Shown: piece after piece, positions 1 through 18,754 of the stretch
How positions within the stretch are numbered: the stretch's first letter is position 1
Layout of the letters: each line of letters opens with the position of its first letter
Assembly (NCBI RefSeq): GCF_008189405.1
Contig: NZ_CP043316.1
Coordinates: 570,001-602,000, forward strand
DNA: 32,000 nucleotides
Reading direction: 5' to 3'
DNA from: Candidatus Saccharimonadota bacterium
GTDB taxonomy: Bacteria; Pseudomonadota; Alphaproteobacteria; CAJXXZ01; 1604HC
The notes under the pieces: generated by a model
Told to the model about the DNA's origin: nothing
Databases searched by the model: none
Seen by the model: the letters and a program-made list of their open reading frames with translations, nothing else
Made by a program: the position numbers and the translations under genes

Positions 1-1
1 T

Positions 2-490
2 GTTAATGCACTAGAGGATATGTTAAATGCAATTATTAGGAGTAAGCTTTATTATAAAGTTGGAAATGGAGGAGGAGACCGAAAATTCCAAGCATATTAT
101 CCCGGGGAGGAGCGTAGAGGTGACGTTGAGTTTTTCAAGAAGGATTATGCTGACTGGTATGCAAAATCTGATGGAGACAAGGCTGTTACAGCATTAAGAA
201 AAGAAGAAGCTGCTAAGCTTGCGAAGGAACGTGATCATGAGGATTATATCGTACACTTGTTTGACAGAGCAGAGGAATTGCTGAATGGATACGAAGGTGA
301 TAAGGACATGATGGGAGAGATCTTTGGAAACTTCTTGTTCTTAAGATGGGCAGAATACAAGGAGAATGCTAGAGGGCGAGACTTCATGAACAGTGCAAAG
401 GATGCATTAGAGGGCATGTTAAAACTGGAATCTTCAGACATTGAAAAACTAAATGCAATCTCAAACGAAAAAATCAAATCCCTGCAATAA
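2..490 (+). CDS. C-terminal module of an unrecognised multi-copy protein family (copy 1). Probably the 3' end of a longer gene that starts upstream of the window.
   Basis: The ORF track gives 20..490, but the frame stays open back to nt 2 (VNALED precedes the first Met). The 156 aa are identical to ORF 11992..12462(-). They are near-identical to the last ~140 aa of ORF 17156..18754. The residues around the first Met (EDMLNAIIRSKLYYKVGNGGG) align with an internal stretch of the 532-aa paralogue (KEVLQEVINRSRKEKVWGEVGNRGGG). Confidence 0.6.
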   Translation, partial: VNALEDMLNAIIRSKLYYKVGNGGGDRKFQAYYPGEERRGDVEFFKKDYADWYAKSDGDKAVTALRKEEAAKLAKERDHEDYIVHLFDRAEELLNGYEGDKDMMGEIFGNFLFLRWAEYKENARGRDFMNSAKDALEGMLKLESSDIEKLNAISNEKIKSLQ

Positions 491-3528: not shown

Positions 3529-3696
3529 AAAATCTTTTCTTTTTAAATGCATTGAGTGCTTTAATTAGTATTTCATTATCATTGTTTTTTTATCTTTATC
3601 TTATTTATTTAATTTTAACTTTTAATTTTTAACCTGATAATGATTAATCATTATATTTCTATTACAATATGATTTTCTTTATGAAATAATAAAATT

Positions 3697-4677
3697 ATGT
3701 TTAATATCGCAATTATCGGGGCTACAGGTCTTATTGGTAGATCTATTATAGATGTATTACATGAGCGCGCATTTCCAATTAAGAATTTATACTTATTAAG
3801 TAGAGTAGAACAAGAAATTTCATTTAAAGATGAAGTATTAAAATGTACGAAGCTTGAGGACTTTGATTTTAAGTCTGTAGATATCATTTTTAATGCAACT
3901 GATAAAGATGTACTAATGAAATATATTGGCGAGATCACAGAATCTGGAGCATTTTTGATTGATAAATCTGAAGCACTTAGAATGGATAAAGATATTCCAC
4001 TTATTGTTCCAGAAGTTAATTCTGATCAATTAGATAGTTATATTACTAATAATAAAATTATTTCTTCTCCAAATTGTGTAGCTATTCCTATGTCCATTAT
4101 AATTAGAACATTGTCACATAAAACAGCAATTGAACAAATTTTCATGACCACATTTCAATCTGTATCTGGAGCAGGCAATAATGGGACTAAAGCATTATTA
4201 GATGAAACAAAGAAAAGTTTTATGGCATCAAGTGTGAATGCAACTAATTTCGAAAAAAGCATAGCATTTGATATTTTGCCTAAAATCGGAAGTTTTAATT
4301 CTGACTTTACGACTTCTGAAGAATTGAAAATAAAACAGGAAATGCAGAAGATATTAAATAATAAGTTAAATATCTGTGTAACATGCACTCGTGTGCCAGT
4401 ACTAAAGGGACATGGAGTTGATTTGCATATTCCTTGTAAGTTTAAGGATAGAAATGATGCAATTAAAGCACTAAAGAGCTCTGATGTGATTCACGTATGT
4501 GATAGAGATGATGCCTATATTACTCAGAAAGAATCCATAGGTGAGGATAAAATTTCTATAAGCAGAGTGAGATATATTGATGGAATTTTAAGTATGTGGA
4601 TTGCATATGATAATGTACGATTTGGTGGATCTGTAAATGGAGTGAAAATTGCTGAAGCAATTACAAAATCACTTTGA
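3697..4677 (+). CDS. asd: Aspartate-semialdehyde dehydrogenase
   Basis: N-terminal Rossmann motif IAIIGATGLIGR, active-site segment SSPNCVAIP, and TFQSVSGAG. Length 326 aa. Confidence 0.88.
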   Translation: MFNIAIIGATGLIGRSIIDVLHERAFPIKNLYLLSRVEQEISFKDEVLKCTKLEDFDFKSVDIIFNATDKDVLMKYIGEITESGAFLIDKSEALRMDKDIPLIVPEVNSDQLDSYITNNKIISSPNCVAIPMSIIIRTLSHKTAIEQIFMTTFQSVSGAGNNGTKALLDETKKSFMASSVNATNFEKSIAFDILPKIGSFNSDFTTSEELKIKQEMQKILNNKLNICVTCTRVPVLKGHGVDLHIPCKFKDRNDAIKALKSSDVIHVCDRDDAYITQKESIGEDKISISRVRYIDGILSMWIAYDNVRFGGSVNGVKIAEAITKSL

Positions 4678-4885
4678 TTGTAAAGAAAATAAAATAATAG
4701 CTGTACAGCATAGTAATAGCGCAATAATTGTAAAATATATTAACAATGAATAGTATAATCGAAATTAATAAGATAAAGTAAAGCTAATATAATTTAATCA
4801 TATAAGATGAAACAGAATAAAATATGTAGGGTAAAGTGCTTACACATTTACTAATAGAAAACTGCTATATGCTTTAATAGCGTAT

Positions 4886-5278
4886 CTATTTAGGTTCATA
4901 ATGTGTCCAATTAGAGAACATGCTATACGCTCTAATAATGTGTCCATCAGGATCTGAAACTGCAAAAGTACGACCATAACATTCATCAGTTGGTTTTTGC
5001 ACAACTTTCACATCAAGCTCATTTTGCCATTTATCAAAAAACACATCTACATCTTCTGTAGATTTCACGTGGATTCCAATTTCAGAAAACCTTACAATAG
5101 AAGTGTCTGGAGTTCTGGTTCCTTCACATATTGCAAATGATGAGTCTGCACCAGCTGCAAATTCTACATAACCAGGGTTAGCAAATACAGGTTTAGCATC
5201 AAACAGCTTTTCATAAAAAGCAGTTGAAGATTCCATATTAGATACATAAATAATTTGTAAATTTGGTCTAATTGTCAT
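4886..5278 (-). CDS. VOC (glyoxalase/bleomycin-resistance/dioxygenase) family protein
   Basis: 130 aa. Start pattern IIYVSNMESSTAFYEKLF and end pattern FAVSDPDGHIIR are typical of small VOC-fold proteins. Confidence 0.7.
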   Translation of the reverse strand: MTIRPNLQIIYVSNMESSTAFYEKLFDAKPVFANPGYVEFAAGADSSFAICEGTRTPDTSIVRFSEIGIHVKSTEDVDVFFDKWQNELDVKVVQKPTDECYGRTFAVSDPDGHIIRAYSMFSNWTHYEPK

Positions 5279-5425
5279 TAAATTTTTTCCTTTGAATTAG
5301 AAATAACACTAATTATACCTTTAAACAAGAGTGCTAAATGTGCAAATAATTGCTTTTCCTCATGGCAAAACATATTCCATTTTAACTAGATATGCATGAA
5401 TATTCATTATTATATATAGATGCAT

Positions 5426-6136
5426 TTAATTTAAAGATGTGATTTCGCTTAAGTTGTTGATAAAAGCTTGCATTGTAAATAATCCTGGGTTTTGATTTAC
5501 AAGCCATTCACATACTTTCAAAGCATCATTTGCATAAATTTTGCGATTAAATACTTGATGCTCAAATCGAATCATTTCTTGATTGTTTAAACCAAGGAAT
5601 TGATGCATAGACATATTATCTCCTGCTCTTAAAGACCATATTTGATCAGCTTGTATTTTATCATGAAGCTGCTTAGTAGTCCCAGATGGATTGTCTGCTT
5701 TGTTTTTATGGTGTACTTCTCCAATTGAAACTGCAAGATTTCTTATTTTATTAATTTTCTCAATAGAAGATTGAATAATACTCCATGAAATTGATGTGTT
5801 TGGAGCCCATAGAATTGGAATAATATTTTGATATGCTTTGTAATCAGATGCAGTATGACTGCCTGTAGTTCCAATAAGGATTGGTATATTGTATTGAACA
5901 GCTGATTTAATATTATTTAATGTGGATTGATGATTGGAGAAATCCAGAATCACATCAGCTCCTTTTTCAATATGATTTGATATCTTTGTATTATTTTGCG
6001 TTAGTGCAACCCCATGATACTGAGTATTTTCCCTAATAACCGCAGAGTGTATTATTATGTTTTGCATTTGAGCAATTTGGATAATAGCTTGACCCATTCT
6101 ACCATTTGCACCTACTATACATATTTTCATAATCAT
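5426..6136 (-). CDS. dapB: 4-hydroxy-tetrahydrodipicolinate reductase
   Basis: MKICIVGANGRMGQ (NAD(P) binding), ILDFSNHQ, IPILIGTTG, APNTSI and EVHHKNKADNPSGTT (E-x-HH-x-x-K-x-D-x-PSGT motif). The start may be the second ATG at 6130. Confidence 0.88.
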   Translation of the reverse strand: MIMKICIVGANGRMGQAIIQIAQMQNIIIHSAVIRENTQYHGVALTQNNTKISNHIEKGADVILDFSNHQSTLNNIKSAVQYNIPILIGTTGSHTASDYKAYQNIIPILWAPNTSISWSIIQSSIEKINKIRNLAVSIGEVHHKNKADNPSGTTKQLHDKIQADQIWSLRAGDNMSMHQFLGLNNQEMIRFEHQVFNRKIYANDALKVCEWLVNQNPGLFTMQAFINNLSEITSLN

Positions 6137-6158
6137 ATTTTAACATCGATCAGATTAT

Positions 6159-6965
6159 ATGCATATGAATTTACATTCAATGTTTTATTATTCAGCTGAT
6201 TCTGTTAAGTTTGATCTAATGATTACAGAATATATATTACATGGCATATTTGAAGCTTTTCCGGTTAGTTCTTCGATGCACTCAATGTTATTTAATTATG
6301 CAATGCAAAATAGCTATGTTATGCAAAATATTGGCATAATTGGGATATTACATGGCATCACAGCAATTGTGACAATTGTATATTTTCATAAAAGTATAAT
6401 TAAGTTATTAATAGATTTTATAAAACCAGGTCATTACAATTTTCTTTCTTGGAAACTATGTTTGATTCTACTACCTAAATTATTATTTGGATTTATTTAC
6501 AGAAATGCGAATTTCCCTTTTTCTTTTTATACAATAATTGCATTTGGACTGCTACTTGCCTTTTATGATATTTATTCCCATCAAAATAAAAAAGCTCATG
6601 AAATATCTTATATGCAGTCTATTTTTATTAGTTTTCTAAGTTTATTTGCATTCTTACCGGGAGCAAGTAGTTTAGGAACTTACTATACAGCTTTTAGAGC
6701 ATGCAACATTAATAGGAAGGAATCTCTTGATTATGCATTTATTTTGAATGTGATCCCATCTATAGGTGCATTTGTGTTAAGATTTACTTATGTTGAAGTA
6801 AATTTAGTACGAATTTTTACTTGCATGTTTGTATACTTATTTGCACTAATTCTTTGTAGAAAATTAATAAATTATTTATATTTGCTAGGTATTTATAGAG
6901 TGATTATAGGAATATGGGTATGTCAAAACATAAATATACAAAAATACTTTTACTGTGCTTTTTAA
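6159..6965 (+). CDS. uppP: Undecaprenyl-diphosphatase (BacA/UppP family), divergent
   Basis: GIFEAFPVSSSMH aligns with the E. coli EGLTEFLPVSSTGH motif. FLPGASSLG...DYAFILNVIPSIGA aligns with WPGFSRSG...EFSFLLAVPMMMGA. Polytopic membrane protein of 268 aa. The 3' end overlaps the next ORF by 52 nt. Confidence 0.72.
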   Translation: MHMNLHSMFYYSADSVKFDLMITEYILHGIFEAFPVSSSMHSMLFNYAMQNSYVMQNIGIIGILHGITAIVTIVYFHKSIIKLLIDFIKPGHYNFLSWKLCLILLPKLLFGFIYRNANFPFSFYTIIAFGLLLAFYDIYSHQNKKAHEISYMQSIFISFLSLFAFLPGASSLGTYYTAFRACNINRKESLDYAFILNVIPSIGAFVLRFTYVEVNLVRIFTCMFVYLFALILCRKLINYLYLLGIYRVIIGIWVCQNINIQKYFYCAF

Positions 6966-8626
6966 TTGTTGGATGTGATAAGAAATCTGATAAGAAAGAA
7001 ACAATTAATTCAAAGATAGCTTCTAGTATACAAAAAGAAGATTGGTATGCAGCCTCGAAGCTGCTTAATTTACATTTAAACATGAAAAGCTCTGCTTCAA
7101 TGCATCTAGCAAATGGTTTTATTTACGATAAACTTGCAAAGCAAGATCCATCCTATGCAGGATTATCAGTTATTGCATATAAAAGAGCATTGAATTTAGA
7201 TCCAAATAATTGGTCTGCTTCATTAGCAATCGGTAAATATTATATGAGAGAACATGATTACTTAAAGGCGATCAGCGCATTTGCAAAGACATTGACTTCT
7301 AATGAAAATAATTTCGAAGCATTATATGGAATGGCAAATGCTGCATATGCAACCAGAAACATTACATTAGCAAAAAATTGCATAGATAAAGCTATTGATT
7401 TACGTGGTGATAATAAATTAGTGAATAGGTTGGCTGCATTGATTTATGCTGCACAAAATAACTCTCGAGCAGATAAATATGCAAATAAATATGCATTTAT
7501 GGAAGATGACTTGTATGAAATTAAATATTTAAGAGACAGGATTCAAGACTGGAAGAAAACTCATAAAAAAATGAGATACAATCCTAATTTCATGAAATCT
7601 TTTGATAGCCCTGATACAAATCAGAAGGATGAAAATATTACAATTGAGTGTGTAATTCTAAGCTTTAATGAGTCAGGTGCATTTTCTCGTGGAAATAATT
7701 TCTTAGAAACTTTACAAGAATTTAAAAGAGATGAATTTACTAAAGGGTTAAGTATCAGAATGGGAAATAACTCACAAGTTGAAACTGGGTTAGCTTCTAG
7801 TCCTGTATATAGTAATAATCAAGATAAGAAATATATATTTGATAATGGGAAATGGATTTTAAGTCCAGATCTGAATGATCATAGTAAATTAATTAAGAAA
7901 GGTTTTTCAATTGGATTTGATAGCATTAGATATAATTTAAATATTCTGAACTCTAGCAGCTCTATAATTGATATAATTTCTAGGCCAATTATGCAGGTTT
8001 CATCAAAAAATGGTAAAGGTGCATTTGATTCTAATGATAAAAGTTTTGTAAATACTGGTGGAGATGTAGGTTCTGCATTATCAAATATTCCATCTGGAGT
8101 AAAGCTAGAAGTTGAAGCAAATCAGGTCGATAAGGACCATATTATGTTAGGTGTAATGTTGGAAATAAGCAAAACAACCTTCAAAAACAACATTGGATCT
8201 CTGAATGATAATGCTAATGTGATTAGTGCTCAATTACAAACACAAATCAAAGCTAAATTAAATGAAACAATGGTTATTGGTGGTGTATATAGTAATGTGA
8301 ATGAATCTTCTAAATCAGGAGTTCCTGGCGCACAAAATATGCCATTATTAGATTTAGTGCTTGCAAATAAAAGTACTCATACTTCTAAAAAGTCTGTAAT
8401 GATGCTATTAACTGCAAAAAACACACAAGAATCTAAAGTGATGGAAGTTGATATTGATCGCATGGAAAACGTTGTTCTATTAAAACAAAGTGAGCCATCA
8501 TTCTTTAAGCACAAATATAATAGAGAAAAAACTATAAAACAACAAGTACATGCATATAGAAGAGAGGATATAAAGTCGCTTAATATATCTAATAATACAA
8601 TACAATCATTTGCTGAAAGAATATAA
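6914..8626 (+). CDS. Lipoprotein with N-terminal TPR repeats fused to a C-terminal secretin domain (type II/III secretion / pilus secretin family)
   Basis: Lipobox LLLCFLIVGC. TPR-like helices: AYKRALNLDPNNWSASLAIGKYYMREHDYLKAISAFAKTL, ALYGMANAAYATRNITLAKNCIDKAIDL. Secretin-like C-terminus: ITIECVILSFNES, IISRPIMQVSS, GVKLEVEANQVDKDHIMLGVMLEIS, NETMVIGGVYSN..SKSGVPG...PLLDLVL, MMLLTAK. Confidence 0.7.
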   Translation: MGMSKHKYTKILLLCFLIVGCDKKSDKKETINSKIASSIQKEDWYAASKLLNLHLNMKSSASMHLANGFIYDKLAKQDPSYAGLSVIAYKRALNLDPNNWSASLAIGKYYMREHDYLKAISAFAKTLTSNENNFEALYGMANAAYATRNITLAKNCIDKAIDLRGDNKLVNRLAALIYAAQNNSRADKYANKYAFMEDDLYEIKYLRDRIQDWKKTHKKMRYNPNFMKSFDSPDTNQKDENITIECVILSFNESGAFSRGNNFLETLQEFKRDEFTKGLSIRMGNNSQVETGLASSPVYSNNQDKKYIFDNGKWILSPDLNDHSKLIKKGFSIGFDSIRYNLNILNSSSSIIDIISRPIMQVSSKNGKGAFDSNDKSFVNTGGDVGSALSNIPSGVKLEVEANQVDKDHIMLGVMLEISKTTFKNNIGSLNDNANVISAQLQTQIKAKLNETMVIGGVYSNVNESSKSGVPGAQNMPLLDLVLANKSTHTSKKSVMMLLTAKNTQESKVMEVDIDRMENVVLLKQSEPSFFKHKYNREKTIKQQVHAYRREDIKSLNISNNTIQSFAERI

Positions 8627-8733: not shown

Positions 8734-10407
8734 ATGAAATGTCATCGTAATATTTTAATTGTTGTTTTTTCGAGTTTTTTAATGTATGATTCCCCTCACG
8801 CTATGGGAGAAGAATTAAATAAAGATACAAATAATATGTGTGCATTTATAGTACAAGCTTTAGAAGGCGATGCTGTACAAAATAGATCAGATCTTGTGAA
8901 CATTCTTAAAGAAACATCTATGGTTATGTTAGAATTAGAAGAAATAAAAGGTAAATTAAGTGGATTATCTTCAAAATTAAGAGGATACGGGTTTGATGAT
9001 CATAAATCAGGAACGGAATCAGAGAAAAAATTAATAGCAAAAGAAGTAGAAGAATCAGTTGATAATCAAGAGAAAACTACTATTTGTGATGAGAATGCAC
9101 CTAATTGCGAATCACAGGAATCACAGGGATTAAGTGATAGTTCTGGTAGTAGCTCTTCAGGTAATACGAGCCCATCACATGATGAAATATCAGATTCTAA
9201 GCAACCAGAAACAGAGCTGGTAGTAGCATCTGAAACAAAAAAAGCAGATAGTCAAGAAACTACCAACTGTAATGAGAATACTACTACATTGCTAGATTCT
9301 AAGAAGGATGTTGCAAGTAGAGCTGTATTAGATGCTTCGACAGAATGTGATGACATAGAAGAACTTGATGCAAAATATAAATATACTAAACCAGAAGAAC
9401 CATATGCTGCATACTATACTACAATTCAGGAAGATATAGAAATATTAAAACACGAAATAATGACAACATATGTAGAAGCTGATAGCATAAAGCAAAAATT
9501 ACAATTGAACCAAAGAGTTGTTAGTATACCTGATCTAAGTAATGCTAGCCTTACTAGCTCTGTTCATGATGTACGTTTCAATGAAATTGATATATCAAAG
9601 ATGCATTATGATCCTAATCACTTTAGACTTCATACATTAGAGTTATACGATTGCACTGGCGTTTCATTGCCTCGTATAGATCTATATGACATTTTTCAAA
9701 TATCTATTATTAACCATTTAGGTTCTGAGATGAATGCAAGTGATTTTTTTATGTTACCTATAGATTTTAATCCTTCAGTAGTAAATATTATAAATAGCAA
9801 TTTAAGTGGTGTGTTTATGGGATTATCAAATACTGTATACAAATTGTTAACATTAAACATATCGCATAATGCACTTAAGAAATTTGAGAAATTCTCAGCA
9901 CCAAAATTACAAGTTTTGAATGGTAATGACAATTCATTTACAAATTTACCATTATATTTAGAAAACTTGCAATATTTATTTTTACAAAACAATCTTATTA
10001 ATAATATTGATTGTGATAATAGTTTGAAATCATTGAGAGTGCTAGATTTAAGTGGCAATAATCTTAGTACCCTGAATAGCAACATATTGAAAATTGGTTC
10101 AATTGCTCCTAATCTTGAAGAATTGCATATAAGTCATAATAAAATGGAAGGGTTTATAGATCTAGGGGATATCCCAAAACTAAGAATACTTAAAGCTTCT
10201 GATAACATCAGATTATCAATTAGATTTAATCGTAATATAGAATATATTGATGTTACTAATACTTACATCATGGAAGTTACTAACTGTCCAGCAGTAGCTT
10301 TCATTACATTTGAATATACCCCTAGCATGGTATCAAGCACTGTAATATCACGTACTGAATCACTTTTAAAATCAGATGAGTTTAAAAAAAAACTAATTGT
10401 GAATTAA
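8734..10407 (+). CDS. Secreted leucine-rich-repeat protein with an acidic/Ser-rich N-terminal half. Possibly the 5' part of a gene split at an A9 tract.
   Basis: Signal-peptide-like start MKCHRNILIVVFSSFLMYDSPHA. LRR consensus runs: LTLNISHNALKKF, LQVLNGNDNSFTNLP, LQYLFLQNNLINNI, LRVLDLSGNNLSTL, LEELHISHNKMEG. Confidence 0.75.
   Translation: MKCHRNILIVVFSSFLMYDSPHAMGEELNKDTNNMCAFIVQALEGDAVQNRSDLVNILKETSMVMLELEEIKGKLSGLSSKLRGYGFDDHKSGTESEKKLIAKEVEESVDNQEKTTICDENAPNCESQESQGLSDSSGSSSSGNTSPSHDEISDSKQPETELVVASETKKADSQETTNCNENTTTLLDSKKDVASRAVLDASTECDDIEELDAKYKYTKPEEPYAAYYTTIQEDIEILKHEIMTTYVEADSIKQKLQLNQRVVSIPDLSNASLTSSVHDVRFNEIDISKMHYDPNHFRLHTLELYDCTGVSLPRIDLYDIFQISIINHLGSEMNASDFFMLPIDFNPSVVNIINSNLSGVFMGLSNTVYKLLTLNISHNALKKFEKFSAPKLQVLNGNDNSFTNLPLYLENLQYLFLQNNLINNIDCDNSLKSLRVLDLSGNNLSTLNSNILKIGSIAPNLEELHISHNKMEGFIDLGDIPKLRILKASDNIRLSIRFNRNIEYIDVTNTYIMEVTNCPAVAFITFEYTPSMVSSTVISRTESLLKSDEFKKKLIVN
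10384..10392 (+). repeat. A9 homopolymer at the 3' end of the first LRR ORF; candidate slippage / frameshift site
   Basis: tttAAAAAAAAActaattgtgaattaa. One extra A places the upstream frame into the frame of ORF 10494..11498. That frame is open from 10386. Confidence 0.9.
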
Positions 10408-10493
10408 TAGACACGCTGAGCAGTGAAGAATCTGATGAAAGTGAAGAACTTGATGAAGATATAGAAAATATACAATTTCTAAAAAATGAGCTA

Positions 10494-11498
10494 ATGGTAA
10501 ATGGAAATAGTATTGGAAATCTTTATGTTGTACGTGGTTGCACAAAAGTAGTACTTAATGATATAAAATTGACAGGAAATAAGTTAAGTATTCTGGATAA
10601 AATTATTAGTATAAATGAGTTAAGATATCTTGATTTAGTGAATTGTGCTTTGACCAAGGCTTTACCTAATATATTTACTTTACAACTATTAGAATGCCTA
10701 TCTTTATCTAATAACAACTTATCAGAAATTGTAATAGCAAAAAAAACACTACCATGTTTAAGAAAGCTTGATTTATCTCGTAATAATTTATCAAAATTCA
10801 GTTGTAGGTTTCTACGACAAATAGAAGATTTGGATTTAAGTAGAAATAAAATTAGTGACCTTAAATATATAAAAAATATGAAAAATCTAGTTTCTTTAAA
10901 TATAGCTAATAATAATATAGATCAATTAGATGATATTGGCGATTTAGTTAATATAGAAATACTTAACTTTGTAAATAATCGTATTTCAAAATTACCATGC
11001 TTAGATGCTCTGCAAAAATTACGTGGATATTATGCACGTAATAATAGGTTTGCATGCATAGAAGAAACTTTCAAACCTATTCATAATATAATTTGTAGGA
11101 AAGTTCCAATAGGCGTAATATATAATCCAGATACTATGAGATATGTTGTGAAATATGGTTATCATCATACAATGAATGATGCTCTATATTACCTTCCCTA
11201 TGAGATGCATATTTGTGGTGGGGATGGAAAAGAATATGATGCAATAGAGAAAGTCTCACATACCGATGACGATAAGATATCTAAATTCAAAAAAGAATAT
11301 AGAGTTGGAATTCCCAATTATAATTCTAAACATAGAATGCAAATACATGGAAATGTAGATAAAGGGATATATGATTTCATTAGTCATTATGTAACTGTGG
11401 ATTGTGTGTATTGTGAAGTCAGTAGTACTAATAGACCCCCATCTAATTATGAAGATAATTTTCAAAACATGCAGAGATGCGCATGCTATGGCTATTAG
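10494..11498 (+). CDS. Leucine-rich-repeat protein with a Cys/His-rich non-LRR C-terminal domain. Possibly the 3' part of the split gene.
   Basis: LRR runs: LRYLDLVNCALTKALP, LECLSLSNNNLSEI, LRKLDLSRNNLSKF, IEDLDLSRNKISDL, LVSLNIANNNIDQL, IEILNFVNNRISKLP. No signal peptide. The frame is open 108 nt upstream of the ATG and encodes an acidic stretch (SSEESDESEELDEDIENIQFLKNEL). Confidence 0.72.
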   Translation: MVNGNSIGNLYVVRGCTKVVLNDIKLTGNKLSILDKIISINELRYLDLVNCALTKALPNIFTLQLLECLSLSNNNLSEIVIAKKTLPCLRKLDLSRNNLSKFSCRFLRQIEDLDLSRNKISDLKYIKNMKNLVSLNIANNNIDQLDDIGDLVNIEILNFVNNRISKLPCLDALQKLRGYYARNNRFACIEETFKPIHNIICRKVPIGVIYNPDTMRYVVKYGYHHTMNDALYYLPYEMHICGGDGKEYDAIEKVSHTDDDKISKFKKEYRVGIPNYNSKHRMQIHGNVDKGIYDFISHYVTVDCVYCEVSSTNRPPSNYEDNFQNMQRCACYGY

Positions 11499-11991
11499 AT
11501 TTGTTTATCATTAGTAATTATGCATCTTGATATTTATTCGTAATGTTTTTTATTATGCCTTATAATACCATTTTCAATTAATAAATTAAACTTAAGTTAC
11601 TTTGAATCGCAATCATTTATACCAGAAGATTAGATTAACTATATAAAAATATTAGATCTTTGAAGCAGTTGGTTGAAAGGTTTATACATATAATAAGATC
11701 ATAGTTAGTTAGGATAGCAATGAGAGAAGGGAATTATTTCTACTGCTAATAGTTATGACCATTTGATGTTATGACAATATATATCATCATAAGGTAAATG
11801 GATGGGATGAATAATTTAGAATATCTATACATTATGCTGCTTCGATTGCCTAAAAATGTATTTTCAATAATCTCAATTAATAAATCATAGTATTATATAC
11901 TATTATAAACTAATCCTATATATCAATAACGTAATAACATTTTTCTTAATATTATATAGGTTTGTTAAGTTTATGGATTAATACAGACACA

Positions 11992-12462
11992 TTATTGCAG
12001 GGATTTGATTTTTTCGTTTGAGATTGCATTTAGTTTCTCAATGTCTGAAGATTCTAGTTTTAACATGCCCTCTAATGCGTCCTTTGCACTGTTCATGAAG
12101 TCTCGCCCTCTAGCATTCTCCTTGTATTCTGCCCATCTTAAGAACAAGAAGTTTCCAAAGATCTCTCCCATCATGTCCTTATCACCTTCGTATCCATTCA
12201 GCAATTCCTCTGCTCTGTCAAACAAGTGTACGATATAATCCTCATGATCACGTTCCTTCGCAAGCTTAGCAGCTTCTTCTTTTCTTAATGCTGTAACAGC
12301 CTTGTCTCCATCAGATTTTGCATACCAGTCAGCATAATCCTTCTTGAAAAACTCAACGTCACCTCTACGCTCCTCCCCGGGATAATATGCTTGGAATTTT
12401 CGGTCTCCTCCTCCATTTCCAACTTTATAATAAAGCTTACTCCTAATAATTGCATTTAACAT
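11992..12462 (-). CDS. Stand-alone C-terminal module of the family (copy 2), with its own ribosome-binding site
   Basis: The 156 aa from ATG 12462 are identical to copy 1. AAGGAGG (12478..12472) lies 9 nt upstream of that ATG. The track's longer ORF (to 12498) adds 12 aa that overlap the upstream ORF. Confidence 0.65.
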   Translation of the reverse strand: MLNAIIRSKLYYKVGNGGGDRKFQAYYPGEERRGDVEFFKKDYADWYAKSDGDKAVTALRKEEAAKLAKERDHEDYIVHLFDRAEELLNGYEGDKDMMGEIFGNFLFLRWAEYKENARGRDFMNSAKDALEGMLKLESSDIEKLNAISNEKIKSLQ

Positions 12463-13327
12463 ACTTATCAGCCTCCTTAAAATGCTTTTGCATAGCATTC
12501 CCTACCTTGACAGTTCTAATTACATTCCAAGATGCATCCTGTCTAACAACCTCATCAAGCATGATTTTAAATTTCTCCAAGCCTTTTGCCGCCTCAACTG
12601 CCATCTTCTTTAACGCAATATGCTTTGCAATGTTTGTAAAATGTTCCTTGTCTTTTGATAGGGATTGTAAAATAGTTGCATTAACCTTTGCTGCTTCCGC
12701 TTTATCGCTCAGCATCGATAATCCTGGATTTTCTAGGTTGTACTCATATATTGAATTGTAGTACAAACTATGAGCTTCCAACCTATCTGATTCTAAGTCC
12801 CAATCAACTTCTAATGTTCCATTTTGAGACCTGTCAGCAAGATATACAGCATTTTTGAATACATCACCATCCATGTCATAGTTACCATACGCATCTGCTA
12901 ACTCCGCATAGCGAGTACTCTGCTTCATTATGTAAGAACGGGACTCATAAACGTATCGCAACATGGCATATTCAGTAGCTTGCTCATCCTTTAAATTATT
13001 TAGTTGTTCTTGCAACTCTTCTTCACTATATTTAGATAATGATTCTATGTATTCATCTTCATCATCTTGGTTAATCATTTGCATATATACGATTGATTTA
13101 CACTTATTATCTGTAAGATCTTTAACAACTTCTTTAGTTCCATCAAGTACAGTTTGATAAAACTCATCATCTCTACATTCTAAATTAGATTCCTCCAGCT
13201 CTATTGCTAAAGATTGATCAGATTTCTTCAAACAATATGCAAATTTACTTGTGCATTCCGTTAATTCTGGGCCATTTGCCATAACTGATAAGCATAATAC
13301 CAGCGATAAAATTCTTAGATTCTTCAT
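12443..13327 (-). CDS. Secreted protein, N-terminal part of the family: signal peptide, variable acidic segment and conserved core. Truncated relative to the 532-aa paralogue.
   Basis: MKNLRILSLVLCLSVMANG signal peptide. Residues 120-268 differ at only 5 of 149 positions from residues 116-264 of ORF 17156..18754. The ORF ends (KYVKCNY*) where the out-of-frame C-terminal module begins. Confidence 0.7.
   Translation of the reverse strand: MKNLRILSLVLCLSVMANGPELTECTSKFAYCLKKSDQSLAIELEESNLECRDDEFYQTVLDGTKEVVKDLTDNKCKSIVYMQMINQDDEDEYIESLSKYSEEELQEQLNNLKDEQATEYAMLRYVYESRSYIMKQSTRYAELADAYGNYDMDGDVFKNAVYLADRSQNGTLEVDWDLESDRLEAHSLYYNSIYEYNLENPGLSMLSDKAEAAKVNATILQSLSKDKEHFTNIAKHIALKKMAVEAAKGLEKFKIMLDEVVRQDASWNVIRTVKVGNAMQKHFKEADKYVKCNY
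12472..12478 (-). promoter_or_regulatory. Shine-Dalgarno sequence (AAGGAGG) for the stand-alone C-terminal module, embedded in the end of the upstream ORF
   Basis: Minus-strand sequence ttAAGGAGGctgataagtATGttaaat. Other genes in the window use comparable SD sites (aaggag, aggagg, aaggaga). Confidence 0.55.
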
Positions 13328-13384
13328 ATATCTCCCTTATAAATTGATTTATTATGTTATATTTACACCTAAATAACAAGAGAT
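13328..13384 (-). promoter_or_regulatory. Conserved 5' leader / promoter-proximal region and SD of family locus A
   Basis: Minus strand: atctcttgttatttaggtgtaaatataacataataaatcaatttataagggagatatATG. Locus B: atcttgttatttaaggatagatggaacataataagtcaatttataagggagatatATG. Confidence 0.5.
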
Positions 13385-13474: not shown

Positions 13475-14020
13475 CTAATCGAATATTTCTTCTTTTATCA
13501 CTTTCCCACCCATATCAAACTGCTTCCATATTCCTGATTTATTTCCATCTATGTATTGTCCAAATTCTAGAATATTAGATGATTTTGGGTGATATGTAAT
13601 AGAATTTCCGTAAAGTAAATCATCTTTATAATTCTCTTCTTTGACTAAATACCCTTTTCCAAATATGAAAAATGCTCCATGTTTTTTATTATCCTTATAT
13701 GCTCCTATTTGCGATAAATTACGATTCTCAAATATATACATAGCGCCATCTGGTTTTTCACCCTTATAGTTCATGATCAAACTTAATTCACCATTTTTAT
13801 AAATTTCTACAACTCCATCAATTTTCCCATCTTTATAATTGACTCTTTGTGCAATGGATCCATTTTTATAATATATGCTCTCTCCATTTCGCACGCCATC
13901 TTTCAATATATGCTTCTCAACAACTTTTCCATCAATCACAACTTCTTCAAATTGTTGCTCTGGAATTTCTTCAGTTTTACAGTTCAATTCATGCTTTTTT
14001 ATAATCTGCTCAATATTCAT
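13475..14020 (-). CDS. MORN-variant repeat protein (YwqK-like / MORN_2-type repeats), translationally coupled to vgrG
   Basis: Repeats of the Y-x-N/D-G-x-x-x-G type: YYKNGSIAQRVNYKDGKIDGVVEIYKNGELSLIMNYKGEKPDGAMYIF...AYKDNKKHGAFFIF...YKDDLLYGNSITY...YIDGNKSGIWKQF. No signal peptide. Its ATG overlaps the vgrG stop (cTAATGaat). Confidence 0.75.
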   Translation of the reverse strand: MNIEQIIKKHELNCKTEEIPEQQFEEVVIDGKVVEKHILKDGVRNGESIYYKNGSIAQRVNYKDGKIDGVVEIYKNGELSLIMNYKGEKPDGAMYIFENRNLSQIGAYKDNKKHGAFFIFGKGYLVKEENYKDDLLYGNSITYHPKSSNILEFGQYIDGNKSGIWKQFDMGGKVIKEEIFD

Positions 14021-17000
14021 TAGTTTAAATTCACCATTCCTGCTTTTATATTAATCATTGCTGATGCTTCAATATCTGCTGTTGTATCACTTTTTAGCGC
14101 CACAATTCCTCCTTTTAAGTTTAAATTACCCCCAGCTTCCAAAGTTAGGTTTCCTCCAGATTTAATTGTAAAATTGCTAGATGCCTTATATGTAATCTGA
14201 TTTGCTTCAATTTCCATATTTCCTCCTGAGATTTTGATAGTATGATTTCCACTATTAATCGTTATATCTTTGTTCCCGGAAATTTCTTCTTTACTATTAC
14301 CATTCCCTAGATTTATTTCCATATTCCCTTTAGAAATTTCGATATTCATATTTCCATCCTGAAGTGTAATTTCTTTATTTCCCTTGTTTAAATCTAATTT
14401 ATAATTACCTTCCTCAATTTTCGTAATCATATCTCCATTTTTGAGCTCAGTGAGGAAATGCTTCGCTTCCTCTGATTCTAATTTAATCTCTTTGTTCCCT
14501 TTTTTGATGATTAATATATCATTTCCTTCTCCATCTGTAGGTTCATCTTCCCCAGACAATTCTACCTTTCGATCTCCACGCCCAATAATCAATTCTGAAG
14601 ATCCAGTTTGAATTGTAGAGCTTTTACCATCTTTAATAATTTCCTCATAATCTTTCTCAGCATGCAAAAATATTTTTTCTTCATTTGCTTTGTCCTCAAA
14701 GCTAAATTCATTGAATCCACGCTCTTCGCCTTCTTCAACATCTTTTAGCGATTCTGTTTTTAGGCCAGTTTTCGAAATAACATCTTCAGTTTCAACCAGA
14801 TTATACGGTGGCATTGTAGTTCTATTATATAAGCACCCTGTAATAATTGGGTAATTTGGATTCCCATTTTCGAATGAAATTACAACTTCTTGCCCTATAC
14901 GAGGAACAAAAAATCCTCCCCATTCATTTCCAGCGCCTCCCCATTGCGCAACACGAATCCATACAGCTTGCTGCAGCATCTCTCCATTACTCAAATTCTT
15001 TCTCCCATTATCCCAATGGAAATAAACTTTCACTTGCCCTAGGTGATTTGTATAGATTTTCTGATCCTCTCCACCAACAACAATTCCTGTCTGAATTCCT
15101 GCAATTTTCCTGTATGGCTCAGGTTTGACTTTAAATGGTTGATCAATTTTCGAAAACACGGCGCTATTTTCATAGTGTAAAACCATATCATCCAAATCTA
15201 CAGTAGCATCATCCATATTTTTATCCACAGCCTGATATTCTAATTTATGAGAAACTCGCTTTACATAATACTGCCCATTCATCTCAATATCTGGGTGATG
15301 CGTAAGAACAAACTTGTATCCAGGGCTAACTTCCTGACGAAAAGTTTTTGTATGATATTCTGTCTCACTTGTATCTGCATGTTGATTGCATATTCCATTA
15401 TATTCTTTCACTTTTTGATCTGAGGTAAATGTTTCGCTATAATGATCATCCACATCGCTAGCAGAACTCTCTGATGAATTTGCCCCAGAGGAATTTTCAA
15501 CTTCATGAATTATATTGCGCTTTTCAGGGTCAAGATCTGGGTTGAATCCTTGAAGTTGGGTGGAATTAGGGGCATATTTATGTGCAACATTCCATTGCGA
15601 GATATATTTATCGTTACGACCCTCCAATCCAGTTGTTGTATAATGCAAAGGACGAGAATCGGTGAATGGGTCGGACATATCAAAAACTTTTGAAACAGCT
15701 CCATCTTCTACAGCCCCTTTCCCCTTAGATTGCGATTCAGCAACAATTTGCGTGTCAAAACCATCGTCGAAAATACTCATTTCTCCACTTTGTACGGAAG
15801 TATAGGCGTTCGCTCCTTTGGAGGCTAACTCTCCTGTGGGGCTATAGTTTTCAATGGCATTTTCATACCCTAAATATGTTTTATATGGCGAGGGAGATGA
15901 GGAAGCAGAAGGAGAAACACTACCTGATTCATCAGCAATTTCTGCACCATCTCCAGAATTAAACCCAGCCAAATCATCTTCCTCTTCCTCGTCATCCGCA
16001 TCATAGTTAGCATCTGCACTATCTGACACATCTGCTCCCTGAGGATTATTATAAAACACAATCCCTGTATGCACGTCCGTATGCTCAAAACAATAATAAA
16101 CCCCAAAATCCCTACACAACCGATTCAATAACTCCCAATCCGTCTCCTCATACTGCACTATATATTCAGGAAAATCCTCCTGTTCACTCTTAGCAAAATT
16201 TGTCTGATCATCATAATTCAAATATTTACTCCTTGGATTCTCAATCGCAGCCATACGATATTGTGCATCCAAAATACTCATATTAATATCAATAATTACC
16301 TTATCATAATGATTATCATGCTGGTCATTCTTTGCCTCAAATTCATCTATTTGAATTTCATAATCATCTGATTGTGATTCATAATTTCCATGTATGGCAA
16401 CTAATTCTGAAGTTCTATCTTTTGATTTTTCATCTTTTAAAGTTATATTATTTTTCTTTATTAATCTTTCAATAATATTTGCCATTAATTTTGACTTGTT
16501 AAATATGATATCTTGATTTTGCTCAACTGGTGCGTCATCTACAGATGGATAGAAAATACGATTACGTTTTGTGCCTAATTTAAATTGCATTTCAGGAATC
16601 ATGCTAAACCCATAAACATAATATTGCTCTTCCTTAGTTGGGGTTTTTATTCCTAAATATGTCCATTCATTGATTATTCCATGCCAATATTTTCTATCAA
16701 TATTTGGCTTGCCAACACTTAAGCCCATGTGCATTTTTTTACTAATCATATTTGGTTTTTTCTCAAAAAATGCAACTTCTCCTTGAATAAAGAATGGTTG
16801 AGATAACCCTTCCTCTATATTAACTTTATAAACTCTCCCTAAATGACGTTTATATCTTCTATCTTCATCAGTTTTAGGTTGCCATTGATCATAACCTAAG
16901 GTCGCTAATCCAATCATTTCAAAATCAGAATTATCTTCAACCTTTTGGTTATGCTTATAAGTATTATTATAATCTTCTTCTAAGGTATAATCTTTTTTTT

Positions 17001-17025
17001 CGAGCTCTTCAGGCATTTGAGACAA
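14020..17025 (-). CDS. vgrG: Type VI secretion system spike protein VgrG (gp27-like plus gp5-like plus beta-helical C-terminus), with large insertions
   Basis: IVQYEETDWELLNRLCRDFGVYYCFEH; YKFVLTHHPDIEMNGQYYVKRVSH; KIAGIQTGIVVGGEDQKIYTNHLGQVKVYFHWDNGR...VWIRVAQWGGAGNEWGGFFVPRIGQEVVISFENGNPNYPIITGCLYN...PPYNL. C-terminal degenerate repeats: GNKEITLQDGNMNIEISKGNMEINLGNGN...GNHTIKISGGNMEIEAN. The first codon at 17025 is TTG; the first ATG is at 17016. Confidence 0.9.
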   Translation of the reverse strand: MSQMPEELEKKDYTLEEDYNNTYKHNQKVEDNSDFEMIGLATLGYDQWQPKTDEDRRYKRHLGRVYKVNIEEGLSQPFFIQGEVAFFEKKPNMISKKMHMGLSVGKPNIDRKYWHGIINEWTYLGIKTPTKEEQYYVYGFSMIPEMQFKLGTKRNRIFYPSVDDAPVEQNQDIIFNKSKLMANIIERLIKKNNITLKDEKSKDRTSELVAIHGNYESQSDDYEIQIDEFEAKNDQHDNHYDKVIIDINMSILDAQYRMAAIENPRSKYLNYDDQTNFAKSEQEDFPEYIVQYEETDWELLNRLCRDFGVYYCFEHTDVHTGIVFYNNPQGADVSDSADANYDADDEEEEDDLAGFNSGDGAEIADESGSVSPSASSSPSPYKTYLGYENAIENYSPTGELASKGANAYTSVQSGEMSIFDDGFDTQIVAESQSKGKGAVEDGAVSKVFDMSDPFTDSRPLHYTTTGLEGRNDKYISQWNVAHKYAPNSTQLQGFNPDLDPEKRNIIHEVENSSGANSSESSASDVDDHYSETFTSDQKVKEYNGICNQHADTSETEYHTKTFRQEVSPGYKFVLTHHPDIEMNGQYYVKRVSHKLEYQAVDKNMDDATVDLDDMVLHYENSAVFSKIDQPFKVKPEPYRKIAGIQTGIVVGGEDQKIYTNHLGQVKVYFHWDNGRKNLSNGEMLQQAVWIRVAQWGGAGNEWGGFFVPRIGQEVVISFENGNPNYPIITGCLYNRTTMPPYNLVETEDVISKTGLKTESLKDVEEGEERGFNEFSFEDKANEEKIFLHAEKDYEEIIKDGKSSTIQTGSSELIIGRGDRKVELSGEDEPTDGEGNDILIIKKGNKEIKLESEEAKHFLTELKNGDMITKIEEGNYKLDLNKGNKEITLQDGNMNIEISKGNMEINLGNGNSKEEISGNKDITINSGNHTIKISGGNMEIEANQITYKASSNFTIKSGGNLTLEAGGNLNLKGGIVALKSDTTADIEASAMINIKAGMVNLN

Positions 17026-17100: not shown

Positions 17101-17155
17101 ATCTTGTTATTTAAGGATAGATGGAACATAATAAGTCAATTTATAAGGGAGATAT
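17101..17155 (+). promoter_or_regulatory. Conserved 5' leader / promoter-proximal region and SD of family locus B, within the divergent vgrG intergenic region
   Basis: About 80-85% identical to the equivalent 57 nt upstream of locus A. SD aagggaga lies 5 nt before the ATG. Confidence 0.5.
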
Positions 17156-18754
17156 ATGAAGAATCTAAAAATCTTATCATTACTATTATGTTTATCAGTT
17201 ATGGCAAATGGCCCAGAATTAACGGAATGTACAAGTAAGTTTGCGTATTGTTTGAAGAGTCCTGGTCGCGCAACGGAAGTTGCTGTGCCAAATATGGGTG
17301 CACAGGTTCTCACTGATGCCGTATATAAAAAGAGATACGATATAGTAAAGGGTGCAATTCCATCAATAGATGAAGAGAAGTGCAAATATCTTGTATATAC
17401 AATGATTATTAATAGAAAAAGCAAACCAGAATATGTTAAGAAAATAGGTGAGAATACAGTTGAGCAATTGTTTGCAGGTTTATCCAATGCGGATAAATCA
17501 TATGCCATGCTGCGATACGTTTATGAATCTCGTCCTTACATAATGAAGCAGAGTGCTCGCTATGCGGAGTTAGCAGATGCGTATGGTAACTATGACATGG
17601 ATGGGGATGTGTTCAAGAATGCTATGTATTTGGCAGAGAGATCTCAAAATGGAACCTTAGAAGTTGATTGGGACTTAGAGTCAGATAGGCTAGAAGCTCA
17701 TAGTTTGTATTATAACTCGATATATGAGTACAACCTAGAAAATCCAGGATTATCGATGATTAGTGACAAAGCAGAAGCAGCAAAGGTTAATGCAACTATT
17801 TTACAATCCCTATCAAAAGACAAGGAACATTTTACAAACATTGCAAAGCATATTGCATTAAAGAAGATGGCAGTTGAGGCAGCTAAGGGGTTAGAGAAAT
17901 TTAAAATCATGCTTGATGAGGTTGTAAGGCAGGATGCGTCTTGGAATATGGTTCATATAGTTCAGATGAACAAGGCTGCACAAAAGCATTTTAAAGATAC
18001 TCAACTTTATTTAGATGATTTGGTAGGCGTAGAAATAACTATGTCAGATCTGAGATCAATTAAGAATGTCCAAGGTGGATATGTAGTTATTTTTGGCGAT
18101 AAAGACAAAGTAAAATTTGATGAGATTATAGAATTATTTAATACAGATAGGGAAAAATGCAAAGAGCTTATTTGGGAAAGAATAGTAGCGGGAGAAGAAT
18201 ATATAAACAAATATATAGTGAAGCCTATGTTTGATAAGCTCTTTAATGAGATGGAAAAGATGGACAAAGAAGTATTGCAAGAGGTAATAAATAGATCACG
18301 TAAAGAGAAAGTTTGGGGTGAAGTAGGAAATAGGGGAGGAGGAAAGAAGTTTCGCGCATACTACCCAGGAGAGGAGCGTCGAGGTGACGTTGAGTTCTTC
18401 AAGAAGGATTATGCTGACTGGTATGCAAAATCTGATGGAGACAAGGCTGTTACAGCATTAAGAAAAGAGGAAGCTGCTAAGCTTGCGAAGGAGCGTGATC
18501 ATGAGGATTATATCGTACACTTGTTTGACAGAGCAGAGGAATTGCTGAATGGGTACGAAGGTGATAAGGACGTCATGGGAGAGATCTTTGGAAACTTCTT
18601 GTTCTTAAGATGGGCAGAATACAAAGAGAATGCTAGAGGGCGAGACTTCATGAACAGTGCAAAGGATGCCCTAGAAGGTATGTTAAAACTAGAATCTTCA
18701 GACATTGAGAAACTAAATGCAATCTCAAACGAAAAAATCAAATCCCTGCAATAA
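17156..18754 (+). CDS. Secreted protein, full-length member of the family: signal peptide, variable segment, conserved core, ~100-aa unique linker and C-terminal module
   Basis: 532 aa. MKNLKILSLLLCLSVMANG signal peptide. The core YAMLRYVYESR...VVRQDASWN is shared with ORF 12443..13327. The C-terminal ~140 aa are shared with the two other copies; differences include DKDVMG vs DKDMMG and GNRGGGKKFRAYY vs GNGGGDRKFQAYY. Confidence 0.8.
   Translation: MKNLKILSLLLCLSVMANGPELTECTSKFAYCLKSPGRATEVAVPNMGAQVLTDAVYKKRYDIVKGAIPSIDEEKCKYLVYTMIINRKSKPEYVKKIGENTVEQLFAGLSNADKSYAMLRYVYESRPYIMKQSARYAELADAYGNYDMDGDVFKNAMYLAERSQNGTLEVDWDLESDRLEAHSLYYNSIYEYNLENPGLSMISDKAEAAKVNATILQSLSKDKEHFTNIAKHIALKKMAVEAAKGLEKFKIMLDEVVRQDASWNMVHIVQMNKAAQKHFKDTQLYLDDLVGVEITMSDLRSIKNVQGGYVVIFGDKDKVKFDEIIELFNTDREKCKELIWERIVAGEEYINKYIVKPMFDKLFNEMEKMDKEVLQEVINRSRKEKVWGEVGNRGGGKKFRAYYPGEERRGDVEFFKKDYADWYAKSDGDKAVTALRKEEAAKLAKERDHEDYIVHLFDRAEELLNGYEGDKDVMGEIFGNFLFLRWAEYKENARGRDFMNSAKDALEGMLKLESSDIEKLNAISNEKIKSLQ

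Follow-up and report, generated by a model that had tools for sequence, protein, structure and literature searches.

The gene for the type VI secretion system (T6SS) spike VgrG in Candidatus Cytomitobacter primus (Holosporaceae), an endosymbiont of the diplonemid Diplonema japonicum, lies between two paralogous genes that are nearly identical at both ends and almost unalignable in the middle. This arrangement raises the question of whether the middle segment evolves unusually fast, as a preliminary description of the locus had proposed, or whether it has a history of its own. The DNA that we analysed, referred to below as the window, is a stretch of 32,000 nucleotides taken from an assembly of 622,357 bp; a second assembly of the C. 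primus strain (GCA_951805245.1; OX638200.1, 622,378 bp) holds the same sequence. The positions of the genes and of the segments compared here are collected in the table.

Table. Features of the vgrG locus and its paralogous genes; positions are those of the window.
Feature	Position	Strand	Remarks
Copy C, 3' end (P0002, 536 aa)	1..490	+	last 156 codons only in window; module of C lies outside the window
Copy A, C-terminal module, 156 aa (P0006)	11992..12462	-	separate out-of-frame ORF
Copy A, N-terminal ORF, 294 aa	12443..13327	-	signal peptide, conserved N-terminus, variable module, core
Variable module of copy A, aa 35-120	12968..13225	-	acidic, net -17, pI 4.05
Conserved 5' region of A	13328..13381	-	TTGTTA-17-CATAAT promoter-like site and AAGGGAGA ribosome-binding site
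MORN-repeat / YwqK-like gene	13475..14020	-	3' of vgrG; counterparts in L003 and L004 56-61% identical
vgrG (T6SS spike)	14020..17025	-	between inverted paralogues A and B; same layout in L003 and L004
Conserved 5' region of B	17102..17155	+	same promoter-like site
Copy B, full length, 532 aa	17156..18754	+	divergent orientation relative to vgrG
Variable module of copy B, aa 35-116	17258..17503	+	basic, net +3, pI 9.0
Second divergent block ("mid") of B versus A and C	17998..18320	+	between repeat arms I2 and I3

Three copies of the gene, A, B and C, together take up about 0.8% of the genome. LRR genes and pyrG adjoin copies A and B, and copy C comes after tssL-tssM-tssA. The linkage to vgrG is kept in three genomes, with copies sitting on either side of it: both other chromosomes of about 620 kb (OZ247489.1 and OZ247501.1) have the order paralogue, vgrG, YwqK-like gene, paralogue, and the copies are found at 3592-5316 and 10001-11629 of locus L003 and at 4525-6201 and 10001-11671 of locus L004. 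Directly 3' of the downstream copy in L003 lies a PLDc_2 gene (220 aa), and two ORFs of 194 aa and 98 aa beside the L003 copy, tested as remnants of the family, have no similarity to it. Rfam models identified no RNA in the region.

A modified T6SS, in which TssD and TssJ were not detectable, has been described for these bacteria in the parts of the text of George et al. available to us (bioRxiv 10.1101/719211). The same parts place a YwqK-family protein next to VgrG, with LRR genes close by, name the gene beside vgrG a YwqK-family immunity protein, and contain no discussion of the paralogue family. VgrG itself carries a long acidic, Ser-rich, low-complexity insert (window ~15700-16020, roughly residues 335-440), placed between the gp27-like and the OB-fold/gp5-like parts, and the local GC rises to 0.40 there. 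Near the paralogue/T6SS region the window also encodes two leucine-rich-repeat proteins (8734-10407 and 10494-11498) and a secretin with TPR repeats (6914-8626).

Each copy appears to carry its own promoter, since an upstream block of about 55 nt containing a promoter-like site and the AAGGGAGA ribosome-binding site is common to all three. The promoter-like sites of A (13351-13379, minus strand) and B (17104-17132, plus strand) are identical, and no phase-variable repeat was noticed when the 5' ends of the copies were read by eye. Copy A is interrupted in the window: it lacks 265 nt, the whole of the block that we call mid, through a deletion at 12457-12463 between two TATGTTA direct repeats. 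Because of the resulting frameshift, the gene is broken up into the two ORFs that are annotated in this assembly as proteins of 294 aa and 156 aa. In OX638200.1, copy A is intact and encodes 535 aa (L002 4565-6172).

The comparison of A with B confirmed that a divergent segment lies between conserved blocks. Residues 1-34 differ at 2 positions and the 148-aa core at 5, against 64 of 82 positions in the segment between them, which we refer to as the variable module and which is about 24-27% identical between the two proteins. At the DNA level, the inverted repeats I4 (13216-13381 / 17102-17267, 87%) and I2 (12474-12971 / 17500-17997, 89%) end exactly at the edges given for the segment before, leaving 12972-13215 of A and 17268-17499 of B as unmatched DNA between them. 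The swap in charge was also found as described, strongly acidic in A and basic in B, and the small anchor KCK..VY...IN is present in both copies. The flanks are 97% identical in protein, with a dS of 0.32-0.52 and a dN of 0.02 (Nei-Gojobori), and the resulting dN/dS of about 0.05 bears out the strong purifying selection that had been claimed for them. Inside the module, the same method gives a dN of 0.89 and a dS of about 2.2, a value that is saturated. A two-breakpoint maximum chi-squared test placed the anomalous segment between codon 35 and about codon 126, with a chi-squared of 163, whereas none of 100 permutations exceeded 26. Both the breakpoint test and the block-wise rates describe a discrete module with sharp edges and a history unlike that of its flanks.

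What kind of history this is can be read from copies A and C, the DNA of which is 99-100% identical everywhere except in the module. Over 1,590 aligned nt, with A in its intact form from OX638200.1, 56% of the positions differ within the module and 0.9% elsewhere (chi-squared 739, permuted maximum 26), and dS rises from 0-0.10 in the flanks to 1.3 in the module. We also compared the codons used at identical residues, a measure that is robust to alignment, and found that they differ at 4% of the flank positions and at 42% of the module positions (p = 1.6e-6). For A versus B, this measure gives the module a synonymous excess of no more than about two-fold, which does not reach significance (p = 0.12). 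Since synonymous divergence, too, is much higher inside the module, the module appears to be older than its surroundings rather than faster. Differences between A and C gather beside the module edge, and at several of these sites C agrees with B, as expected where conversion tracts end.

The pair of copies in L004 has the same structure. Starting about 90 nt upstream and ending with the stop codon, their DNA is 100% identical apart from a stretch of ~250 nt at ~45% identity, and their modules have no detectable similarity to one another (Smith-Waterman score 24, z about 0). The same mosaic pattern has thus arisen, or has been maintained, independently in two genomes, C. primus and that of L004. 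Within C. primus, it is also found a second time in a single gene. The mid block of B (about aa 282-388) is ~37% identical to those of A and C, which match each other fully there, with zero differences over a 390-nt mid block when A is taken from OX638200.1. Across aa 265-395 of B, dN is 0.60 and dS 1.35, compared with a dS of 0.3-0.45 in the flanks, and mid is the best single anomalous segment in the maximum chi-squared comparison of C with B. The mid block of B shows the same mosaic phenomenon as the variable module.

We then asked how the modules relate to each other across the three genomes, in a sample of seven sequences in which module alignments, at 14-35% identity, are fragile. Outside the module, the sequences group strictly by genome: for the core and the C-terminal parts, identity is 97-100% within C. 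primus and within L004, 63-78% within L003, and 16-38% between genomes. The module of B is closest to a module from L003 (L3_div574; Smith-Waterman score 112, z about 20) and to one from L004 (L4_down558; score 91, z about 15), and the latter resembles B far more than it does the other module of L004. Targeted bootstrap tests gave 93-99.8% for these relations of the B-type module. Between genomes, this basic type is 26-35% identical, the core 27-32% and the C-terminal half 16-19%. The basic module is thus as conserved between genomes as the core and more conserved than the C-terminal half, so that the word "hypervariable" is not supported. The notion that the segment has diverged radically fares no better, as synonymous change is raised along with amino-acid change and the basic type of B recurs in two other genomes. 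Nor does the comparison support the earlier proposal of diversifying or antigenic variation, since the contrast between the module and its flanks would come from the homogenised flanks.

Both charge classes occur in all three genomes, a single basic module (+1 to +4) being accompanied in each by one or more acidic ones (-6 to -17). Cross-genome grouping is weak for the acidic types (bootstrap 26-78%), and the module type of C has no counterpart in the other genomes. The modules of L003 are mutually 40% identical, which suggests that protection from conversion is not absolute there. Relative to vgrG, the positions of the basic and acidic types are swapped in L004 as compared with C. primus and L003; modules or copies have therefore changed places over evolutionary time, and a swap of this kind would result if crossovers took place on both sides of the module.

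The family itself is restricted in distribution. Searched exhaustively with HMMER, 1.84 billion representative proteins yielded just two further clusters, P0004 and P0005, which come from OZ247489.1 and OZ247501.1. A metagenome scan for the family returned nothing, and of the scans of GTDB genomes one returned nothing and another just the two known genomes. Word-indexed protein searches matched no protein outside C. primus and the L003 genome, a weak negative, as the word-indexed alignment searches missed members of the query set itself (P0004 and P0005 in one case, P0005 in another). Judged from these searches, the proteins appear to form an orphan, lineage-specific family found in only three genomes of ~620 kb. 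Members gave nothing significant against Pfam, NCBIfam, PHROGs or PADLOC; the best E-value was 0.41 in a PDB sequence profile search and 1.8 when the family model was compared with the PDB by Foldseek. No toxin or immunity domain was recognisable by any of these routes (Pfam, NCBIfam, PADLOC, PHROGs, PDB sequences, Foldseek-PDB), and no cognate partner gene adjoins the paralogues besides the YwqK-like gene. A "YES...AYGNY" motif brought up a lytic transglycosylase as a candidate, which was rejected on inspection by eye: the Ser varies in L003 and L004, and a GLMQ motif is absent.

All seven proteins open with what is, by eye, a typical Sec-type signal (a positive start, about 12 hydrophobic residues, and Ala followed by Asn/Cys), and the family is predicted to be Sec-exported. 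A lipoprotein was considered and rejected, as Cys is absent from the signal region in the L004 proteins. An AlphaFold model built from a 3-sequence alignment was poor (pLDDT 42). The model built from a 5-sequence alignment has a pLDDT of 72-91 over residues 51-180 of B and is poor elsewhere (mean 50). Its most confident part is residues 54-112 (mean pLDDT of 72-91 in 10-residue blocks), where helices are predicted at 54-67, 73-86, 91-97 and 102-112 that run into the first helices of the core; the folded part of the module of A corresponds to these residues of B. In the model, the module is thus a predicted four-helix unit that continues into the core of an all-helical protein, and it would pack against the core, judging from the contiguous model confidence. 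Residues 35-53 have low model confidence and may serve as a tether. The helical and hydrophobic pattern is conserved across all seven sequences, and the prediction is of a folded module and not of a disordered linker.

We put the probability at about 0.7 that the segment is not evolving fast and is an old, copy-defining module, spared while gene conversion homogenises the rest of a vgrG-linked, Sec-exported, all-helical family. Each genome would keep two or three copies in inverted orientation, and homologous recombination and RecA-dependent gene conversion between them would time and again make promoter, signal peptide, core and C-terminal half alike. At the module of ~250 nt, the tracts of conversion would end because it is too diverged to pair. 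In addition, the loss of a module type would be selected against: as nothing else in L004 escaped homogenisation, we infer that selection keeps the types apart. The module would then retain a divergence older than the separation of the three known genomes, each of which holds a basic type and one or more acidic types, and would look "hypervariable" only by contrast with flanks whose own divergence has been erased. Each module would set the partner or target of its copy, in the envelope or outside the cell. RecA/RecFOR are reported as present in these genomes in the available parts of bioRxiv 10.1101/719211, and the abstract of PMC6053082 describes concerted evolution in prokaryotes that lasts for long periods.

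Other explanations have to be weighed against this one. Diversifying selection after a single duplication, whether antigenic or driven by an arms race, would fit a module dN of 0.8-1.0 against 0.02 in the flanks, the radically different charge of the copies, and the speed of the family as a whole, which is 16-38% identical between genomes where neighbouring genes are 53-72% identical. Selection on amino acids would not, however, predict that synonymous divergence is raised too, and for A versus C it is raised more than ten-fold. The dN/dS of the module is below 1, although saturated, the basic type has been retained in three genomes at the level of identity of the core, and the host is a protist and as such has no adaptive immunity. 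We regard this explanation as unlikely.

It is likewise improbable, in our judgement, that the module is a mobile cassette, swapped recently from silent copies or imported from another bacterium into young duplicates. The razor-sharp edges between flanks of 99-100% identity speak for such a cassette, as does the opposite placement of the basic and acidic types in L004 and C. primus, but crossovers in the two flanking blocks of homology would suffice for the latter. Moreover, no further module-like sequence or silent cassette was found in the window together with loci L001 and L002 (about 60 kb), no relatives turned up beyond the three genomes among the representative proteins, metagenomes and GTDB genomes searched, and the nearest modules of other genomes are so distant (26-35% identity) that no recent donor is visible. 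As for the cassette exchange suggested in the preliminary description, the swap in L004 makes it plausible that copies have traded modules in the course of evolution, and a recent or external donor is not visible. A disordered, poorly constrained spacer that simply drifted after the signal peptide is very unlikely: the low model confidence of residues 35-53 and the absence of a known domain are compatible with it, but the four confident helices that follow, the pattern common to all seven sequences and the conservation of the basic type across genomes speak against it, and drift would not have stopped conversion from erasing a neutral difference in the otherwise identical L004 pair.

Homogenisation of the flanks around an old module, the reading that we prefer, involves recombination between inverted copies, which can also invert the DNA between them. 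The segment 541-11941 of the window (11.4 kb), which lies between the inverted copies C and A and contains an S1-like gene, tlc, asd, a glyoxalase gene, dapB, bacA, the secretin gene and the two LRR genes, has the opposite orientation in OX638200.1. It is flanked by 19-540 and 11942-12463, the inverted ends of C and A, which are 99% identical. The flipped block is either a real inversion by crossover between the copies or a mis-assembly across repeats of 1.3 kb. Base composition also differs between the parts of the copies. GC3 is 0.35-0.44 in the blocks common to all three copies (12474-12967, 11992-12425, 17504-17997 and 18321-18754), and about half of that in the modules (0.16-0.26) and in the neighbouring genes (0.17-0.27). 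The high GC3 of the shared blocks is possibly a trace of GC-biased gene conversion in an AT-rich endosymbiont, with which it is compatible; alternatively, it could reflect codon or amino-acid constraint.

The locus illustrates how a "hypervariable" middle can arise from the homogenisation of its flanks, without fast evolution of the middle itself. Endosymbiont genomes of this small size are usually thought to be static, and here gene conversion, and probably inversion too, would be at work in a genome of 620 kb. The family is uncharacterised, and its linkage to vgrG, its predicted export and the preservation of at least two module types per genome make it a candidate source of effectors or accessory components for the atypical Holosporaceae T6SS. 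A specificity determinant is our best functional guess for the module, and we suggest tentatively, at somewhat less than even odds, that the exported protein is tied functionally to VgrG and the T6SS and that the module sets what each copy binds. A more specific, but unlikely, idea is that the acidic and basic types form a conserved functional pair, either because the copies co-assemble through charge-complementary helical modules or because they address two targets, for example the host mitochondrial membrane and a bacterial envelope. The proteins would then be periplasmic or secreted parts of the non-canonical Holosporaceae T6SS, reported to be without TssJ and Hcp, and might replace a missing component; crossovers flanking the module would change the copy in the vgrG operon.

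Several known systems share features with the family. Its position directly beside vgrG and its paralogous copies recall the vgrG-linked effector/immunity modules of the T6SS and orphan immunity arrays, and its signal peptide resembles that of periplasmic immunity proteins. Unlike in those modules, the variation lies inside the protein, close to the N-terminus, and not in a C-terminal toxin tip, and membership in an effector-immunity system is unsupported beyond the linkage to vgrG. The preliminary description had pointed to the surface antigens of Rickettsiales. Like Msp2/P44 and OMP-1 of the Anaplasmataceae, this is a paralogous family of an intracellular alphaproteobacterium with a variable stretch between conserved flanks; unlike them, it has few types, of which the basic one is conserved across genomes, and its host is without adaptive immunity. 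The analogy also fails on the protein itself, which matches neither PF01617 nor any other Pfam family and has an all-helical model, and on taxonomy, as the organism belongs to Holosporaceae, not Rickettsiales, and lives in a protist. No silent cassettes were seen in the ~60 kb examined.

Closer parallels are found among genes subject to conversion. The tufA and tufB genes of Salmonella are, like the Cytomitobacter copies, inverted and homogenised, and experiments have shown that their conversion is RecA-dependent, processive and blocked by large stretches of heterology (PMC5485169). Homogenisation extends over the entire tuf genes, whereas in Cytomitobacter it leaves out an internal block, and a second one in B, which persist as distinct types. 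In its logic, the closest analogue is the Bab family of Helicobacter pylori, in which the N- and C-termini are nearly identical, the middle is divergent, and gene conversion operates between loci within the genome; within a given type the middle region is conserved, and specificity is attributed to it (PMC4552749). BabA, BabB and BabC thus resemble the Cytomitobacter family in their near-identical ends, divergent middle and intragenomic conversion. They are, however, beta-barrel adhesins of a mucosal pathogen, with phase variation by CT repeats and frequent chimeras among strains, whereas the Cytomitobacter proteins are predicted to be all-helical, have no known domain, are linked to vgrG and come from one strain of a protist endosymbiont with a 620-kb genome. 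Mosaic paralogue families are thus already known, and it is the setting that is unusual here: a T6SS-linked orphan family in a protist endosymbiont with a genome of 620 kb.
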